64,000 nucleotides of DNA, taken from positions 6,315-70,314 of IMG/VR virus record IMGVR_UViG_3300035703_000070; one strand, given 5' to 3'. Position 1 is the first letter of the stretch; each line of letters opens with the position of its first letter. Positions 15,821 to 60,161 of this stretch are shown here, piece by piece. The notes below the pieces were generated by a model. That model made no database searches. It was not told the DNA's origin and was given only the letters and a program-made list of their open reading frames with translations. A program made the translations under genes and the position numbers. This DNA is from a virus.

Positions 15821-16762
15821 ATGACGGCAGAGCAAGTATTCTGGAAGCGATGTTTTGACATTGCCCGCAAATGCGGGGCTCGCTTTCCAGAACTTGCTGC
15901 TGCTCAATGCTGCTTAGAAAGCGGCTTCGGTAAGCATTTTTCTGGCAAGAACAACATCCTTGGCCTCAAAGGCGATGGCTCCAATGTCTCGACAAAAGAG
16001 TTTTACGATGGTCAATGGGTGACAATCAAAGCGGGCTTCATTGATTTCCCTTCCATTGAAGCTTGCATTGAATACTTGGTCACTCGCTGGTACAAAGACT
16101 ATCGACATTTCAAGGGCATCAACAAAGCCCCCAATCGCTATGCTGCGGCTCGCATGCTTTATCAGCAAAGTTATGCGACGGATCCCGACTACCCGGCAAA
16201 ACTTTCAAAGCTGATGAAGCAATACGCTCCTGAATCTACAACTTCCACCATGATTGGCCCTAAAAAGCGTCCGCAAAATTTTGACTTCAAGCCTGGTGAT
16301 TCTCACTTGGTCGTTAATGATGCCGTGGAAACCATGAAAGCTTTTTCCTACGAAGGAAAGCTGTTGTGGGAAATTCCTTGCCTTGCTCGTGGACAATACA
16401 GTGACTTTGAATGGCGCATCCAAAACAGTGACACTCCCGTGGGAATCTACCTATTTGGGGAAGTGCACAAAGACTACGAGCGCGTAGGCGACAAGCCTGC
16501 ATATGATCGAACTTTGATGGCATATGGCTGGTACAGTTTCGACATGATTGACTTGGAAGGGCAGGAAAGAAATAATGGAAGGGCGGGAATTATGGCCCAT
16601 GGGGGTGGCAGCGCTAATGGCTGGCCAGGCGCGTGGGCGCCCAACCAGCCGCTAGTGCCTTCTCATGGATGTCTTCGTCTAAGAAATGTTGATCTTCGCG
16701 ACAAAATTCTTCCACTTTACAGACAAGGCAAGATCTTCTGTTCCGTGTGGCAAGAAGGCTAG
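15821..16762 (+). CDS. endolysin: GH73 glucosaminidase + L,D-transpeptidase-like domain
   Basis: AQCCLESG.G...NNILGLK, YATDP.Y (GH73); TP.G.Y, HGGG...SHGC.R (YkuD-like). Confidence 0.82.
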   Translation: MTAEQVFWKRCFDIARKCGARFPELAAAQCCLESGFGKHFSGKNNILGLKGDGSNVSTKEFYDGQWVTIKAGFIDFPSIEACIEYLVTRWYKDYRHFKGINKAPNRYAAARMLYQQSYATDPDYPAKLSKLMKQYAPESTTSTMIGPKKRPQNFDFKPGDSHLVVNDAVETMKAFSYEGKLLWEIPCLARGQYSDFEWRIQNSDTPVGIYLFGEVHKDYERVGDKPAYDRTLMAYGWYSFDMIDLEGQERNNGRAGIMAHGGGSANGWPGAWAPNQPLVPSHGCLRLRNVDLRDKILPLYRQGKIFCSVWQEG

Positions 16763-17286
16763 TCAACGTGCTTCCATATTTTGCGCAAACGAATTGCGCT
16801 AATAACGGGCTGAGTTACTCCATAGGCTTCTGCCAAGTCAGCTTGCTTTTCATTACTAGCTCGTATAGCTAGCACGTCAGCTTCAGTAAGCTTGCTGGCT
16901 GGATTTGCAATGCCGCGCAAAATTGTGCCATGCCTAACTTTATCGGCTTCATTCTCAGCCTTTGTTCCCCAAGCCAAGTTATCAAGCCTGTTATTGCTGG
17001 GATCGCCATCCAGATGCCTGGCTTCACAATTCTCTGGGCGAGGACCAACAAATGCTTCGAGCGCCAAGTGATGAACAGGACGCTGTTTGTCTGGATTACG
17101 TAAAAGAACTCGCTTGTATTTTCTGCTCTTCCCAGACGAAGACGGAGTGAAGTAACGAACCCCAGTCCTCCTCCGACCAGAATTCGCCTTCACCCAGCGA
17201 TCCAAGCTTCGCACCCGCCCAAAATTACTTACCTCGTAAATCCCTTCGTATCCAGCAATGGGGCGCCATTCTTCTATTATGGACAT
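16759..17286 (-). CDS. NUMOD4-HNH homing endonuclease
   Basis: EEWRPIAGYEGIYEVSNFGRVRS; VHHLALEAF...RHLDGD..NN...NL.W. Confidence 0.9.
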   Translation of the reverse strand: MSIIEEWRPIAGYEGIYEVSNFGRVRSLDRWVKANSGRRRTGVRYFTPSSSGKSRKYKRVLLRNPDKQRPVHHLALEAFVGPRPENCEARHLDGDPSNNRLDNLAWGTKAENEADKVRHGTILRGIANPASKLTEADVLAIRASNEKQADLAEAYGVTQPVISAIRLRKIWKHVD

Positions 17287-55286: not shown

Positions 55287-55505
55287 CTACATGGGCTCGC
55301 TACGGCGAGCCTTTTCTTCTTGGTGGTGAATGTAAGTTTTCAGTTCGTGCAAATAAGAGCGAAGCATGGCAGCCTTTTCTAGATGCCAAGGGTCACGATG
55401 GAGAAAGTAAAGCTCCATGTGATTATCAATGGCCTTTAAGCAATTGTGAATGGGCGCATTCCAGCGCGAACGGATCGGGGTGTTAAACGTCCGACGATCG
55501 TCCAT
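55287..55505 (-). CDS. hypothetical protein
   Basis: 72-aa ORF. Confidence 0.65.
   Translation of the reverse strand: MDDRRTFNTPIRSRWNAPIHNCLKAIDNHMELYFLHRDPWHLEKAAMLRSYLHELKTYIHHQEEKARRSEPM
55294..55315 (+). terminator. Rho-independent terminator
   Basis: GGCTCGC-TACG-GCGAGCC-TTTT. Confidence 0.75.
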
Positions 55506-56043
55506 TGGCTTTGAAATAAGCCTTGATGTCTTCTAATGCTACTGGCTCAAAGTTATTCCTCTCCAGGCAGGCATTGAAATAGCGCCTATCCACTTGCCCA
55601 TCTTCTGTATGAACAAGATGGCAATGGAGATGGCCGTGAACATTGCCTCGATAATGACCGACAATATTTTTAGGGTGGACAGGGATGTGCGTGAAGATGA
55701 GACCACCAAGCATGGTGCTATCACCATGGTGGAAATATGCCCCGCGAATGTCGTCGAAATATTGAAAATAGAGCTTAGCCGGAAGGCGATCGTGGTTTCC
55801 AGCAATCAATACTTTCCTTCCATTGAAGCCCTTCAAAAGCCTTAAGGCAGTGTTAGAGAATGCCACGTCACCAAGAACATACACATTGTCTTTCTGGTGG
55901 ACTTTCTTGTTCCAGCGCTCTTGAATTATTTCGTGCATTTCCTCAATAGAGGAAAAGGGCCGCATTGCCGAACCATCTGGCGCGTCAAACTCCAGAATCC
56001 TGGAATGACCCATATGAAGATCTGCCGTAACAAATGCTGTCAT
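55483..56043 (-). CDS. calcineurin-like metallophosphoesterase
   Basis: DLH.GH, LGD, GNHD, THIP, HGHLH. Confidence 0.9.
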
Positions 56044-56624
56044 TTTGCTTCTTGATTGATTGGAGTGCGTGTTGCTGTCCAGCCTTGACAGTGAGGCCTT
56101 TCCCCCCTGGAGACAGCCCTGATGTTAGCGCTTTCCACCGATGGATGCTGGGTGCAAAATTCAGAAACAGTCAAACCAGTGATGACTTCGCCGCTTGGCC
56201 CATAAAAGGTGTACTCATATTTTTTTCTTATTTGTCGGTAATGTTCTTTGGTTTTTTCTGAATGCTTACTTCCGCGTGGCCAAGGATCCTGCCTGTAGCG
56301 AGCAGCCCTAATTCTTTCAATCACCTCCGGGGAGAATCCTGAGCTACCTTCCCCGCCTTGTGTCAGGTTTCTTAGTAAACCAGTACCAATGTCTTTGCGG
56401 CCCAATACCGCAATCATGTAGCGTTCGTGCTTAAACGCTTCTTTTTCGGTTAGGTCTTTTTTGAGGATCAGGATTCGACTGGGATCACTGGGTTTGTTTA
56501 CGGCGCATCTTGAATGCGAAACCCATGCGCGATAGCCACGACCTTTGCCGATGTAATACGGTGTTCCGTCTTGCCTCATGTACGCATAGGTGTAAAAATC
56601 TGCCTTCTGTCCCATCGAGACCAT
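56040..56624 (-). CDS. GIY-YIG-like homing endonuclease
   Basis: [17 protein letters not shown]...[17 protein letters not shown]. Confidence 0.85.
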
Positions 56625-56643
56625 GACACTAATCTTGGCCTCT

Positions 56644-56691
56644 TTATTCTATAGCCCCAAGGTGCAGGTCTGAGGTGACAAAAGCGCTCAT
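56644..56691 (-). pseudogene. relic 5' end of the metallophosphoesterase gene
   Basis: ATG AGC GCT TTT GTC ACC TCA GAC CTG CAC CTT GGG = MSAFVTSDLHLG versus the functional [12 protein letters not shown]. Confidence 0.8.
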
Positions 56692-56696
56692 GATGA

Positions 56697-56897
56697 TCAG
56701 TGCTTTTCGTAAACCACTTTTCTTTGCACGGGATCAGGACGATCTTCCAGCTCATGCAAAAGATCAAGAGCCTGATCAAATGTGCTAAACCAGCCCCTCT
56801 CGTCCCAGATAAAAGGACAAATGCGCTCTTGTACTTCGTAGAGGGGCTCCCATGGACGCACGGCGCTTGGACGTTGAACAATGCGAAATCGCGCCAC
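56697..56897 (-). CDS. hypothetical protein
   Basis: 66-aa ORF, GTG start. Confidence 0.6.
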   Translation of the reverse strand: MARFRIVQRPSAVRPWEPLYEVQERICPFIWDERGWFSTFDQALDLLHELEDRPDPVQRKVVYEKH

Positions 56898-56944
56898 AGC
56901 AAAACTTAGAAGGCAAGCCTCAGTTTAGTACGGTTCGGAAGAAA

Positions 56945-57014
56945 GGGCTCCTCCAGGAATCGAACCCGGCATTCCAGGCTATCGGCCTGACGTGTAAGCC
57001 TACACTAAGGAGCA
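56945..57014 (-). tRNA. tRNA-Ile(GAT)-like, atypical
   Basis: TGCTCCT TA GTGT-AGGCTT-ACAC G TCAGG-CCGATAG-CCTGG AATG CCGGG-TTCGATT-CCTGG AGGAGCC; C33, short D-loop, 1:72 mismatch. Confidence 0.65.
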
Positions 57015-57016
57015 AG

Positions 57017-57132
57017 TGACCCCCAAGTTTGAGCATCGTTGAGAGGCTTAGGGAGTGTTAAACGATGGAGCAAGCGTGAGGGTCATCCGGGATTGGCTCC
57101 CAGTGACGCACAGAGGCTTGCCCTCCGTCGCT
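57017..57132 (-). ncRNA. candidate structured RNA (two hairpins) upstream of the tRNA
   Basis: Long imperfect hairpin CGACGGAG/GCAAGC/GTCA/CTGGGA with partners, then CCCTAAG/CTTGGGG hairpin; TGCTATAGT -10-like element upstream. Confidence 0.5.
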
Positions 57133-57145
57133 TGACACTATAGCA

Positions 57146-57838
57146 CTAAGCGCGACCGTAGGAAGGCAGACTAGTGTTGCGCTTGGGCTTGTCACGCCCA
57201 AGGAGTTCGCCATTGAGGCGCTCCGCCATGTCCCAAAGCGGCTCCGTGGTCAATTCATCCCATCCTTTACCCCCGTATTTAGCACTGCTAATAGTAGAAG
57301 GCTTTACGCCCCATGCTTCAGCCAATTGAGTGCGCAAGCCACGCAAATGCCGCATGTCTTTGGGAAGTCGCAACAACACCCTGACCTGGGCTTCGTTGAG
57401 CAGTGGGTCGCCAATTTTTTTGCGTGGACGCTTGGATCTGCCGTCAATGTACGCGGGCCAATACCCAAGATTACGTTTCATGTCGGCGGCATTTTCCTTG
57501 AGACTGCCCCATCTAAGGTTTTCTGGCACATTATTGGTGTGAACGTCGTCGTAGTGCAAAACGTTTTCCTTCCCTTCTGGAGGAAGTCCATGGAAAGCAA
57601 GGCACACAAGGCGAGCCACAAGAATTCTTTTCAGTTCTCCATTTTTAGACAGCATCACAGACATTCGCCCATGGCTCTTGCTGATATTAAACCGAAGGAT
57701 TTTCTCTTTGAACACGCGAGTGCGCTCTTTGTTGTTCTTAGTATCCTTGACAACGCGTTGAACACTTTTGATGCGTCCAAGACTTGAAGCTGCGTAATGG
57801 GTTTCGTAACCAGGAATGGGTTTCCAAATTTCTTCCAT
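57146..57838 (-). CDS. NUMOD4-HNH homing endonuclease fused to the relic NrdB C-terminus
   Basis: EIWKPIPGYE..YAASSLGRIKS, VARLV..AFHG, H.DD...NN...NL.W; ends NTSLPSYGRA. Confidence 0.88.
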   Translation of the reverse strand: MEEIWKPIPGYETHYAASSLGRIKSVQRVVKDTKNNKERTRVFKEKILRFNISKSHGRMSVMLSKNGELKRILVARLVCLAFHGLPPEGKENVLHYDDVHTNNVPENLRWGSLKENAADMKRNLGYWPAYIDGRSKRPRKKIGDPLLNEAQVRVLLRLPKDMRHLRGLRTQLAEAWGVKPSTISSAKYGGKGWDELTTEPLWDMAERLNGELLGRDKPKRNTSLPSYGRA

Positions 57839-57904
57839 GAAAAAGGCGGAGAACAAGAACCCCGCCAGTTTAGCATGGATAAGCTGGAAGATTGCAGGTG
57901 GTCT

Positions 57905-58639
57905 CTAAGAATACATAGGCAGTGAAGTATTCGGACTTTCAAAAAAAGCAGGGCATCGACTGCTGCGCGTAGCAGCCATTTCGGGAGCCTTGCCAGTCCA
58001 GAATAAAGAGCGAGATTGACGCAGCCAGAAATCTTTGTTCAGCCATTGATTGGACGAAGCGCCGAGATCATCAAAAAGCCAGGCAACAGTGGCGGCCCGA
58101 AGCTTGTCAAGACTTTGGCTTTCCTTTTCCCCTAGTTCCTTGCTCACCATGGCATTGACCACGGTATGAACCCTTTCATCCCTCGAAATATCTTGCGAGA
58201 CAGTGCGCATGCCCACGTCACCCGTCTGCCTGAAAAACGGAAGCGCCACGAAAAAAACGGAGCGTTCCATAACGCCTGCCTTGAGAATGGGATGAGCAGG
58301 GTGCTCGTTCCAGGCTTTTAAAATGCTCATCACTTCACGCTCTGACTTTGTGTCAGTGCCGTGGGCATCGGCCACGTAGTTCAAAGCCTCCAAGTGGCGG
58401 TCTTCATCGTCCTGGTTAGAACGAAGAGTCTCGATAAGGCCAGGGGTGGAGGGCAGTTCACGCTTCATGCCCTCCTCAAGAAGCTCCTTTACGGGAATTT
58501 CAAGGTGGCGCAATGCCAAAGCCTTAAGCAAAGTGCTTTCAGCGCCCTCTGTCACCTGTCCTTTTGCCACTTGCACAGGCGTCCATGCACGCTTTTTGGC
58601 AAGGACATTCAAATAGGGACTCTGCTGGGAGGTGATCAT
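57905..58639 (-). CDS. nrdB: ribonucleotide reductase beta subunit (cyanophage type, ferritin-like)
   Basis: DE.RH and DE.VH diiron motifs, ERSVFFV.LP.FR; adjacent to nrdA. Confidence 0.8.
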   Translation of the reverse strand: MITSQQSPYLNVLAKKRAWTPVQVAKGQVTEGAESTLLKALALRHLEIPVKELLEEGMKRELPSTPGLIETLRSNQDDEDRHLEALNYVADAHGTDTKSEREVMSILKAWNEHPAHPILKAGVMERSVFFVALPFFRQTGDVGMRTVSQDISRDERVHTVVNAMVSKELGEKESQSLDKLRAATVAWLFDDLGASSNQWLNKDFWLRQSRSLFWTGKAPEMAATRSSRCPAFFESPNTSLPMYS

Positions 58640-58712
58640 ATTCAGGAAAGCGATGGAAAAGAATGAAAAAGGGGAAGAAACTCCCCCTTTGCGAAGAACT
58701 ATGGAGAGAAAA

Positions 58713-60161
58713 TTATTCAGCGCAGCTAGAGCAGAAGCCTGCATCCAAACTGCAAGTAACAACCTCTCCGGAAGGCTCGCTATCTTCGAGTCCAAATATG
58801 CTCTTGAAATCGTCATCAAGAGCGGCGTAAGCATCGTCCTTTCTTTGCATGTCAGACATGACCTGCAAGGAATAGTACATGCTCGTCTGAGGAGAGTCTA
58901 GCCAATCTTGAAGGAACTCTCGATCGTAAGTAACCAAATCTCCCCATGTGTTCATGGAGTAACCGTGAAAAAGGCCAGTGGCTTGGTACAAGCGCACGAG
59001 TTCGTTGACGACAAGAACGTAAGTGTTCCAGCCAACTTGTTCCGCAATTTCCACTTCCCCATAGTCAAAACTTTCCACGCCAAAGGTGCCAGAGTCCCTA
59101 TCAACAAGCCGTCCAATGGGAGGGGCAATTTCAGGGGCAGTGGTGAAACCTTTCTTGTCGAGATAGCGATAGGAGCAGGAAGCAGTGGGGGCAATACAGA
59201 AGGCACGGTGCATGCCGTGCTCGCGGGCAATCTTTGCTGCAGCTTCAATGCCGTCACGAATGGCTGCTGCGGCCCTCCCGGCAGGCCTCTCTCCCCAATA
59301 GTGGCACCATGGATGGGGATCATCGTCATTCAGCGCTTGCAGCGCCTTGCCGAAGTCTTCGTAAGAAATACCATGGAGGGAAAGGAAATTGGCAAGACCA
59401 AGCATGCCAAGCCCCACTTGCTTGTCAATAGAAGGGGAAAGGTATTCGCCAGTCTCGCCAACACCAGTATTTGGATGGAGCTCACACAGTTGCTTCATGC
59501 CCTCCGCAAAAGCTTCTTCTACTTCGTCGATGTCACAAGCACCCATGTTGACGTGCTGCAAAAGGCAAGTGCCACGATGAGGAAGATAAACTTCAAGGCA
59601 GACATTGGCGCGAATGCGATTTCCTTCTTGATCGTACCGAATCTTGTTCAGCCAAATGTCGCCGGAGGCAATGCCCTTTAGCAGCTCATCAATCAGTTCT
59701 TGAGAAGAGTTTTCAATAAACCGCTCATCCACGTTCACACACCTTTTCACCCATGGAAGCTCTTGGCGGGAGGCCTTGATGAAATCAAGAATGTCAGGGT
59801 GTGTATAGTCAAGATGAAGCACTACGGCCCCATTCTTATATCGTCCACCCCTACGGAGAATTTCATTGAGAGTGGAATAAATCTTGCCAAAACTAATAGG
59901 ACCACTTGCGACAAGGCCCTTGCCGTTTTCATCGCCTTTTCCGCGCAGTTCCGACAAATGCACTGCCACACCTGCGCCATTACGCAAACCATGAGAGACG
60001 AAGCGCCACGACGCTTCGATGCCATTTTCCCCCTCCATTGAATCATCTACTACAAAGACCGTGCAGCTTACGGCAAGGCGGCCTTCTGGATCATCCAACC
60101 AACTCTGCACACGCCCTGTACGGGCAATTTTTTCGCACTTCGCCTGTTCCTTGAGCTCCAT
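58713..60161 (-). CDS. nrdA: ribonucleotide reductase alpha subunit (cyanophage type)
   Basis: SC.V, NVCLE, C.L.HVN, GLG.LG, APTAS, C-terminal CSSC. Confidence 0.9.
   Translation of the reverse strand: MELKEQAKCEKIARTGRVQSWLDDPEGRLAVSCTVFVVDDSMEGENGIEASWRFVSHGLRNGAGVAVHLSELRGKGDENGKGLVASGPISFGKIYSTLNEILRRGGRYKNGAVVLHLDYTHPDILDFIKASRQELPWVKRCVNVDERFIENSSQELIDELLKGIASGDIWLNKIRYDQEGNRIRANVCLEVYLPHRGTCLLQHVNMGACDIDEVEEAFAEGMKQLCELHPNTGVGETGEYLSPSIDKQVGLGMLGLANFLSLHGISYEDFGKALQALNDDDPHPWCHYWGERPAGRAAAAIRDGIEAAAKIAREHGMHRAFCIAPTASCSYRYLDKKGFTTAPEIAPPIGRLVDRDSGTFGVESFDYGEVEIAEQVGWNTYVLVVNELVRLYQATGLFHGYSMNTWGDLVTYDREFLQDWLDSPQTSMYYSLQVMSDMQRKDDAYAALDDDFKSIFGLEDSEPSGEVVTCSLDAGFCSSCAE

Follow-up and report, generated by a model that had tools for sequence, protein, structure and literature searches.

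Diverged copies of the nrdB terminus around a NUMOD4-HNH endonuclease gene in an S-CBS4-like cyanophage

How can a free-standing nuclease gene occupy the coding end of an essential gene and leave that gene whole? The question is raised by a 64-kb stretch (hereafter, the window) out of the 70.3-kb virus record IMGVR_UViG_3300035703_000070, rated 98% complete, in which nrdB, encoding the beta subunit of a ribonucleotide reductase (RNR), is followed on the minus strand by a NUMOD4-HNH gene that ends with a second version of the nrdB terminus. The duplication had been noticed in an earlier inspection of the letters alone (the sequence-only reading), and was confirmed on the open reading frames (ORFs) and their translations: nrdB ends with NTSLPMYS (57905-57931), the downstream ORF with an in-frame NTSLPSYGRA (57146-57178), and the two copies differ in the codons AAT/AAC, TCA/AGT and TAT/TAC. 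Tails are quoted throughout up to the stop codon, which directly follows the last residue. Among named phages, Synechococcus siphovirus S-CBS4 is the nearest, its NrdB being 65% identical to that of the window. As judged from sequence comparisons, a NUMOD4-HNH cassette is very probably resident at the extreme 3' end of nrdB in S-CBS4-like cyanophages, lodged between diverged repeats of the nrdB terminal segment.

The comparison set included 29 viral and 36 metagenome nrdB loci, together with 57 HNH loci, indicated in the following by L numbers. The tail was readable in 27 of the viral and 35 of the metagenome nrdB loci; some of the metagenome contigs, having the same lengths as viral ones, appear to be duplicates of them.

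Three copies of the nrdB terminus in the window

The features found between the start of nrdB and the end of the nuclease gene, all on the minus strand, are the following:

57905..58639, minus strand: nrdB, ferritin-like RNR beta subunit, 244 residues (PHROG 6799 and tblastn)
57905..57931, minus strand: tail copy 1, functional, NTSLPMYS plus stop, end of the nrdB ORF
57870..57893, minus strand: tail copy 2, untranslated spacer relic NLPAYPC plus stop, overlapping a -10-like box TGCTAAACT at 57867-57875
57845..57866, minus strand: G+C-rich hairpin followed by a T run, a terminator-like site, 6 nucleotides (nt) before the HNH start codon
57146..57838, minus strand: NUMOD4-HNH homing-endonuclease gene, 230 residues from MEEIWKPIPGYE (Pfam, PHROG)
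57146..57178, minus strand: tail copy 3, NTSLPSYGRA plus stop, probably a displaced nrdB terminus, forming the in-frame C-terminus of HNH
57137..57145, minus strand: box TGCTATAGT, directly after the stop of copy 3, a -10-like motif by eye

NrdB ends with FFESPNTSLPMYS and the ORF 57146-57856 with GRDKPKRNTSLPSYGRA. The sequence-only reading had spoken of a duplicated C-terminus; the duplication stands, the number of copies does not, as NLPAYPC had been overlooked in the 66-nt spacer between nrdB and HNH, where it is untranslated and out of frame with nrdB. Three tail copies imply at least two rounds of displacement. In the six frames of the window, NTSLP and N..LP.Y occur twice each, both times at the tails of nrdB and HNH; LPxY followed by up to four residues and a stop is found six times, three of them within these 800 nt (57922, 57890 and 57169). 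When random 12-mers of HNH composition were compared with the NrdB tail, only 10 out of 30000 shared even a 4-mer with it.

The spacer is conserved in its layout. A relic of the form [L/F]PxY is present at the equivalent position in 15 of the 16 HNH-bearing loci tabulated, L042 being the exception, and an equivalent hairpin is visible before every HNH copy aligned. Read-through of the PMYS stop into the spacer relic was considered and dropped, the relic being in frame in L100 and out of frame in the window (offset 14). Use of TTGCCA/CTGCCT within the relic as a -35 element for the TGCTATAGT box is also unlikely, as the spacing is 21 nt and no sigma-70 site was reported there by the promoter scan.

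The nrdB product matches PHROG 6799 ('ribonucleotide reductase class Ia beta subunit') with E 1.6e-106, over profile positions 2-238 of 238, and by tblastn it matches 56 records of cyanophages that carry the annotation RNR class Ia beta; no Pfam match was obtained. The protein is 49% identical to the beta region of S-CBP4, the phage whose RNR defined class O. As in that class, beta directly follows a short alpha subunit (482 residues) and terminates one to a few residues past a conserved Tyr; all 32 distinct NrdB sequences compared end with LPxY plus 1-4 residues. By these features the window RNR is of class O type, with a ferritin-like beta after a minimal alpha. In the part of the class O report drawn upon here (PMC9531940), the beta C-terminus lies one residue past the Tyr equivalent to the radical-transfer Y356, and the alpha-binding extension of roughly 10 residues is missing. 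The statement that the beta tail binds alpha and carries a radical-transfer Tyr, made by the sequence-only reading, holds here only in its second half, because a class O-type beta lacks the alpha-binding extension (PMC9531940, same part).

After the invariant LPxY the tail is hypervariable, even within one clade (NrdB 80-99% identical to that of the window), where MYS, DYSA, DYSS, DYS, NYSRQ, NYSR, NYSG, NYSS, NYS, AYSR, AYF, SYSA and SYGRA were all found; some of these variants differ through single-base indels near the stop (TCTTAG vs TCTAGG). At its other end, the nrdB ORF is open up to 58834, and homologues start at MITSQQSPYL (58639); the extra 195 nt (58640-58834) overlap the end of nrdA, and automatic callers may over-extend the gene. 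In L031 (3619-4353) the nrdB reading frame stops after 154 residues and the similarity goes on.

The ORF downstream of the spacer spans 57146-57856, its true start probably being the ATG at 57838. It matches the Pfam families NUMOD4 (E 3.5e-14, 53.2 bits, cut-off 23.4) and HNH_3 (E 1e-7, 31.9 bits, cut-off 24.8), as well as PHROG 1492 and 59, both 'HNH endonuclease'; by these profiles, 57146-57838 is a free-standing NUMOD4-HNH homing-endonuclease gene. A search of 56000-58200 against Rfam, at E up to 1, matched only the abiF motif and a tRNA, with no sign of an intron RNA, and nrdB is one continuous ORF that follows its PHROG profile end to end; an intron or intein was therefore rejected and the element taken as free-standing.

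The last residues of the ORF are foreign to the HNH family. None of the 40 HNH matches listed from the phage collection (out of 814 matching records) aligns past query residue 224 of 236, and the close viral homologues end with GRDK (L037-40), GRDKA (L014, L015) or GRE(K/R)PKRKxx (L041-44). The native protein should therefore end at about KPKR, the last 10 residues in the window being extra. Of 41 distant HNH homologues from other genomic contexts, none has an LPxY tail, nor does a tail-like relic lie within 60 nt of the stop in any of them; an NTSLPSYG ending in unrelated contexts, which would have spoken against the sequence-only reading, was thus not observed. In L102 (3287-3944) the similarity to HNH is divided between two overlapping segments, residues 5-152 and 146-223, suggesting a frameshifted, decaying copy.

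The cassette and its flanks in related loci

In the viral collection, HNH has 15 close homologues (L034-L048, 61-99% identity), every one of them 52-66 nt behind an nrdB stop; the same holds for the copies of eight HNH-bearing metagenome loci. The NrdB proteins preceding close HNH copies are 55-99% identical to that of the window. HNH is patchily distributed: among the nrdB loci whose tail could be read, it is present in 3 of 27 viral and 8 of 35 metagenome ones. In all five divergent lineages compared HNH is better conserved than NrdB, identities to the window being 83 vs 63% in L037, 77 vs 55% in L041, 76 vs 63% in L042, 77 vs 57% in L043 and 96 vs 87% in L094.

Identity along the locus changes abruptly. 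Between the window and its nearest relative, L003, it is 55-93% per 100 nt upstream of 59134, 94-100% from 59133 to 57146, a tract including the 3' 420 nt of nrdA, nrdB and HNH, and 39% after 57134. On a finer scale, the 87 nt before the downstream tail copy (the relic) are identical, 4 of 33 nt differ within the relic, all synonymous, and past the 9-nt box the two sequences are unrelated. Since the tract ends in the first relic codons, the relic belongs to the differing downstream backbones. The relic of L004 shows four more differences from the window, again all synonymous. In the comparison with L094, the step up in identity, from 55-86% to 88-97%, lies at about 57964, within the last 60 nt of nrdB. 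On these tracts, the cassette is best described as spreading by gene conversion with co-converted flanks.

The functional tail was analysed in the same loci. The two nrdB scans yielded 11 HNH-bearing loci, and in each of them nrdB ends with PMYS. In a tree built from the NrdB body, this ending is polyphyletic, being spread over the window clade, L014, the clade of L008 and L027, L018 (whose sisters end with PDYS, PSYSA and PAYF) and the distant L037-40. In the latter group NrdB is 63% identical to that of the window and the sister group L045-48 ends with CYG; nevertheless L037-40 share with the window an identical stretch of 17 nt, which starts with the MYS codons and runs 5 nt past the stop; the five codons before it differ in L037. 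The 17 nt shared across distant nrdB clades, together with the polyphyly, suggest that the replacement tail travels with the cassette, and support a joint movement of the functional MYS tail and HNH between nrdB clades.

An nrdB-like tail marks the 3' end of HNH in 10 of the 11 HNH lineages. It is fused in frame in three of the 11: window and L003, L094 (NTSLPAYGRG) and L045-48 (NVNLPSYGS, with a different junction, after PLWEIA). In L037-40, NNDLPQYGRA comes directly after the HNH stop, and in L041-44, L101, L104 and L110 a tail xLNLPxYGxx lies in another frame, overlapping the HNH stop or after it. As its frame varies among lineages, the relic is not maintained as a part of the HNH protein; on this comparison, its in-frame reading in the window is incidental.

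The relic resembles functional tails of other nrdB genes. GTSLPSYGRA terminates nrdB in the HNH-less L024, L119 and L120, sharing 9 of 10 residues with the window relic, and NVDLPSYGRE does so in S-CBS4; the closest HNH-less relatives end with PDYSA, PAYSR, PNYSRQ or PMYS. The relic stop directly abuts TGCTATAGT and a conserved element, both of which, in the HNH-less L016 and L013, follow the nrdB stop by 20-38 nt; the box is also found directly after the relic stop in L004, L042, L043, L094 and L104. These likenesses support the view that the last 10 HNH codons originated as an nrdB terminus, since displaced, and do not belong to HNH proper. The sequence-only reading had HNH landing about 10 codons before the nrdB stop, bringing a new tail and absorbing the old one: the displaced terminus is borne out, the absorption is an incidental feature of three lineages in 11.

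A proposed mechanism and its alternatives

The proposed mechanism starts from what is seen directly at these loci, namely three copies, their conservation across lineages, a patchy cassette, tracts of elevated identity, and forms that look empty or decayed. The repeat unit, present in diverged direct copies on both sides of the cassette, is composed of the codons N-x-x-L-P-x-Y and those following, the stop and a TGCTAnAnT box. Its upstream copy provides nrdB with a complete tail including the terminal Tyr (here PMYS), a vestigial copy stays in the spacer, and the downstream copy is best explained as the displaced, earlier nrdB terminus, so placed in the window that HNH translation runs in frame to the old nrdB stop. 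The enzyme may nick or cut HNH-less alleles in or beside the terminal LPxY codons; repair from an HNH-bearing, co-infecting genome would then copy the nrdB 3' end, the spacer and HNH, with the downstream relic acting as a short right-hand homology arm. Through such an arm the cassette could enter unrelated downstream regions, such as the element of the window, that of the L003 type, and the terminator types of L014 and L045. As the insertion would split the recognition site, carriers would be immune. Splicing is not needed, because a complete tail remains with nrdB and a box with the RNA genes downstream. The hairpin before the HNH start codon may limit expression by read-through, as described for T4 nuclease genes in the part of the review considered (PMC2988022).

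Several observations weigh against this proposal. One concerns PMYS itself, which also terminates nrdB in 14 of 50 loci that lack HNH (8 of 23 viral, 6 of 27 metagenome). Empty-site alleles ending with PMYS had been named beforehand as a case against the scheme, and on their face they exist; they carry a relic, a second tail copy or a deletion, and were read for this reason as loss or empty-site forms. L004 corresponds to the window arrangement with a deletion from +70 to +670, counted from the nrdB stop; the relic is retained, and short sequence matches (microhomology) are seen at the deletion ends. In L018, L109 and L111 the spacer, with relic and box, leads straight into the downstream RNA element. 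In L100, PMYS is followed by 15 nt and by a full second tail, YLPTYGKP. This locus and L101 are collinear, with 95.6% identity over 320 nt, as far as the LP of that tail copy, and again from xYGK, one residue and the stop onward, and what L101 has in addition is the spacer relic, the hairpin and HNH. L100 may be either an exact empty site or the product of a precise loss, and the deletion reading counts against the proposal. Taken together, these loci agree with repeated gain and loss. As HNH-less PMYS loci exist, PMYS may have been native to part of the clade rather than imported with this HNH, and its arrival in the window genome together with the present HNH is only a possibility.

The relics provide further points on the same side. 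HNH of the L014/L015/L105 type has no recognisable relic: a 36-nt in-frame gap removes it, and the sequence after the HNH stop is homologous to that after the nrdB stop of L024. L101, L104 and L110 carry a relic of the xLNLP type, foreign to the resident nrdB clade (NTSLP); relics can therefore also travel with the cassette, and are not always the recipient's own tail. Empty alleles ending with NTSLPSYG(RA) directly before the RNA and tRNA region had been predicted; in neither collection does NTSLPSYGRA directly precede the box in an HNH-less allele whose NrdB is at least 90% identical, and the nearest SYGRA-tailed one, L024, is 80% identical in NrdB and has a different downstream region. The HNH remnant beside the relic of L004 differs from the window by nine synonymous and three nonsynonymous changes; because this remnant, too, changes mostly at synonymous positions, the synonymous-only pattern of the relic could partly reflect translation as HNH. 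The sigma-70 promoter scan found no full promoter at the -10-like boxes, which are recognised as such by eye only. Finally, cleavage, target site and homing are all steps that we infer.

A different order of events is possible, though we regard it with some doubt: the duplication may have preceded HNH, PMYS and the downstream copy having been produced by an earlier, lost cassette or by a small tandem duplication, and HNH having then inserted between LP and xY of that untranslated copy, without bringing a functional tail. L100 has such a double tail and no nuclease, and HNH of L101 sits exactly in that second copy; the spacer relic between PMYS and HNH in the window and the frequency of PMYS among HNH-less loci agree with this order as well. 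It is opposed by the identity of PMYS and the 5 nt after its stop in L037-40, in spite of the distant NrdB and of a sister group ending with CYG, which indicates that the tail moves with HNH today; the tract of high identity between the window and L094, beginning inside the nrdB 3' end, and the invariable PMYS of the HNH-bearing loci from the nrdB scans point in the same direction.

The end of the window/L003 tract bears on another explanation, which we consider unlikely, namely that the fused relic is a passenger carried from an earlier host in a co-converted flank, and not the old tail of this backbone. Near-identity stops at the first relic codons and the sequence beyond is unrelated, so that the relic goes with the downstream backbones; in addition, its NTSLP matches the window's own nrdB clade. 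A passenger would account for L101, L104 and L110, members of the NTSLP clade with xLNLPxYG relics resembling those of the distant L041-43, and for the same relic in L042, whose own tail is NTSLPSYGR; it would also fit the 0-nt distance between relic stop and box, seen in several HNH lineages and not in HNH-less genomes.

Very improbable is a function of the in-frame tail within the HNH protein, such as docking to RNR alpha or self-regulation, for which it would have been kept. All six substitutions inferred in the relic among window, L003 and L004 are synonymous, and the frame is open in three lineages; however, three in-frame cases out of 11 are about the level expected by chance, L037-40 have a stop directly before the relic, L014 and L015 have no relic, and class O beta tails are described, in the part of the source cited, as having no alpha-binding extension (PMC9531940). 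That NTSLPSYGRA is the native C-terminus of this HNH family, resembling the nrdB tail by chance, has a negligible probability and was rejected: the shared stretch is short (five identical residues plus Tyr), but it is absent from every HNH homologue examined outside the nrdB context, close homologues stop short of it, and within the window the motif occurs at no other site.

Neighbouring nucleases, precedents and meaning

The nrdB end is occupied by other nucleases as well. Endonuclease_7-type ORFs, of several subtypes, directly follow nrdB in S-CBS4 (L001), L009-L012, L020, L022, L023, L030, L093, L095, L098, L113, L114, L116-118, L122 and L125. In L020, L113 and L114 the nuclease gene is followed at once by LNLPSYGAA and TGCTATATT, and in L122 by SYGAA and TGCTATAGT. 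As two Endonuclease_7 subtypes (that of L020 and that of L122) are followed by an nrdB-tail relic and a TGCTATAnT box, different nuclease families seem to replace one another at this one position. A faint tail-like stretch overlapping the Endonuclease_7 C-terminus in S-CBS4, L022 and L023 was too weak to be claimed.

The remaining features of the region are listed below. On the minus strand, from 60161 to 55483, the order is nrdA, nrdB, NUMOD4-HNH, a non-coding stretch, abiF, tRNA-Ile, a 66-residue ORF, a second nuclease and a phosphoesterase; in S-CBS4 it is rnr, beta, endonuclease VII and phosphoesterase, rnr being syntenic with the window nrdA.

58713..60161, minus strand: nrdA, RNR alpha subunit, 482 residues (Pfam Ribonuc_red_lgC, E 3.5e-19)
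about 57056-57136, minus strand: conserved non-coding element (conservation among relatives)
57019-57055, minus strand: abiF RNA motif (Rfam RF03085, 48.9 bits, cut-off 37)
56945-57014, minus strand: tRNA-Ile (GAT) (ARAGORN; Rfam tRNA, 35 bits)
56697-56897, minus strand: 66-residue ORF (ORF list)
56644..56691, minus strand: phosphoesterase N-terminus relic, MSAFVTSDLHLG then AIE and stop, upstream of the second nuclease
56040..56624, minus strand: second free-standing nuclease gene, 194 residues (PHROG 314 'homing endonuclease', E 6e-8)
55483..56043, minus strand: phosphoesterase gene with a replacement N-terminus (PHROG 547, E 1.5e-43)

The region downstream of nrdB (56945..57136, minus strand) is conserved in L004, L016, L013 and L031. 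The abiF motif is located between nrdB/HNH and tRNA-Ile, and is preceded by an element of 80 nt common to L004, L013, L016, L025 and L031, which matched no Rfam family.

About 1 kb away from HNH, the second nuclease duplicates the N-terminus of the phosphoesterase, a mirror image of the nrdB case, so that the other case to which the sequence-only reading refers is real as well. The 48 nt upstream of it encode MSAFVTSDLHLG then AIE and a stop, corresponding to the native phosphoesterase N-terminus; the nuclease interrupts the phosphoesterase gene after about 12 codons, and the native N-terminus survives as an orphan ORF of 15 codons. In the replacement N-terminus after the nuclease, 11 of 12 codons differ from the relic. 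L003 and L004 have an intact phosphoesterase N-terminus, continuous with the gene, and no nuclease, and represent clean empty sites. A GIY...YIG-like motif is visible by eye in the second nuclease, for which no Pfam match was found. Elsewhere in the window, at 16759-17286 (minus strand), a second NUMOD4/HNH-like paralogue of 175 residues, 39% identical over residues 9-129, is flanked by two plus-strand genes; no terminus duplication was noticed there in the ORF list, the only level at which this site was inspected.

Tentatively, the last codons of nrdB, around the radical-transfer Tyr, could be a landing pad for at least two nuclease families (NUMOD4-HNH and Endonuclease_7), with tail copies as built-in homology arms, the replacement tail on the left and the displaced one on the right. 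Such arms would allow homing into genomes that are unrelated downstream of nrdB, and repeated gain and loss may have stacked the copies and diversified the RNR beta C-terminus. If so, selfish nucleases would shape the end of an essential enzyme (tails MYS, DYSA, NYSRQ, AYSR, AYF, SYGRA and others).

The closest parallel is found in fungal mitochondria. The mORFs of Allomyces macrogynus atp6 and of Glomus atp6, atp9, cox2 and nad3 are, in the part of the source considered (PMC3630166, citing Paquin et al. 1994), free-standing endonuclease genes near the 3' end of an essential gene, which receives an in-phase replacement C-terminus; the displaced native C-terminus lies downstream of the endonuclease ORF, sometimes fused to it in phase, and neither intron nor intein is involved. 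The window shows the same two elements, NTSLPMYS as an in-phase replacement upstream and NTSLPSYGRA as a displaced terminus downstream. The fungal cases are found in organelle genomes, with enzymes of the LAGLIDADG or GIY-YIG type and 50-280 nt duplicated (PMC3630166, same part), whereas here a phage genome and a NUMOD4-HNH enzyme, with Endonuclease_7 in the same slot, are involved, only about 8-10 codons and a short box are duplicated, three copies are stacked, and the displaced tail is read as the nuclease's own C-terminus. The window cassette thus works like an mORF and lies outside the mORF group, because of its phage genome and HNH enzyme. The general, splicing-free homing strategy put forward by the sequence-only reading holds as to the duplication without splicing, but the strategy itself is not new, being already described for these mORFs (PMC3630166, as above).

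Among phages, T4 mobE and the 'intronless homing' it exemplifies share with the window a free-standing HNH gene by the RNR genes that targets nrdB (PMC2988022; PMC2790892, both in the parts considered), co-conversion of flanks, and hairpin or terminator elements around the gene (PMC2988022). In contrast to the window, mobE lies between nrdA and nrdB, and duplicated termini are not described in that part of PMC2988022, a review of T4 free-standing nucleases in which the word stem 'duplicat' does not occur. F-CphI, a homing endonuclease with an Endo VII motif by psbA in cyanophage S-PM2, is a precedent for Endonuclease_7-type homing in cyanophages; its target gene is different, and no terminus duplication was noticed in the part of the report considered (PMC6083498). 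More generally, a literature search of partial coverage, in titles, the openings of abstracts and selected passages, returned no account of a phage homing nuclease flanked by duplicated gene termini. Friedrich et al. are said to have reported, in 2007, that mobE of Aeromonas phage Aeh1 splits nrdA into 'genes-in-pieces'. Like the window element, Aeh1 mobE reportedly is an HNH gene inserted in a phage RNR gene without an intron, RNR function being retained; there, the host gene is said to be split into two polypeptides, whereas the window nrdB is whole through the duplication of its terminal codons. As far as the literature search shows, the principle is known from fungal mitochondria and the variant in phages is apparently new.

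The case shows that a phage homing nuclease can occupy the coding end of an essential gene with neither intron nor intein, the duplication of the terminal codons leaving the host gene whole and, by the proposed mechanism, splitting the target site. The comparative series, including filled, apparently empty and deletion forms, in-frame and out-of-frame relics, a second nuclease family and an N-terminal mirror case, is a natural experiment on invasion, co-conversion and decay. For annotation, it means that the 'HNH' protein annotated here includes 10 C-terminal residues foreign to HNH, and that short orphan ORFs such as 56644-56691 are relics of gene termini. The nrdB 3' ends of these phages are mosaics, to be trimmed before the gene is used as a phylogenetic marker.

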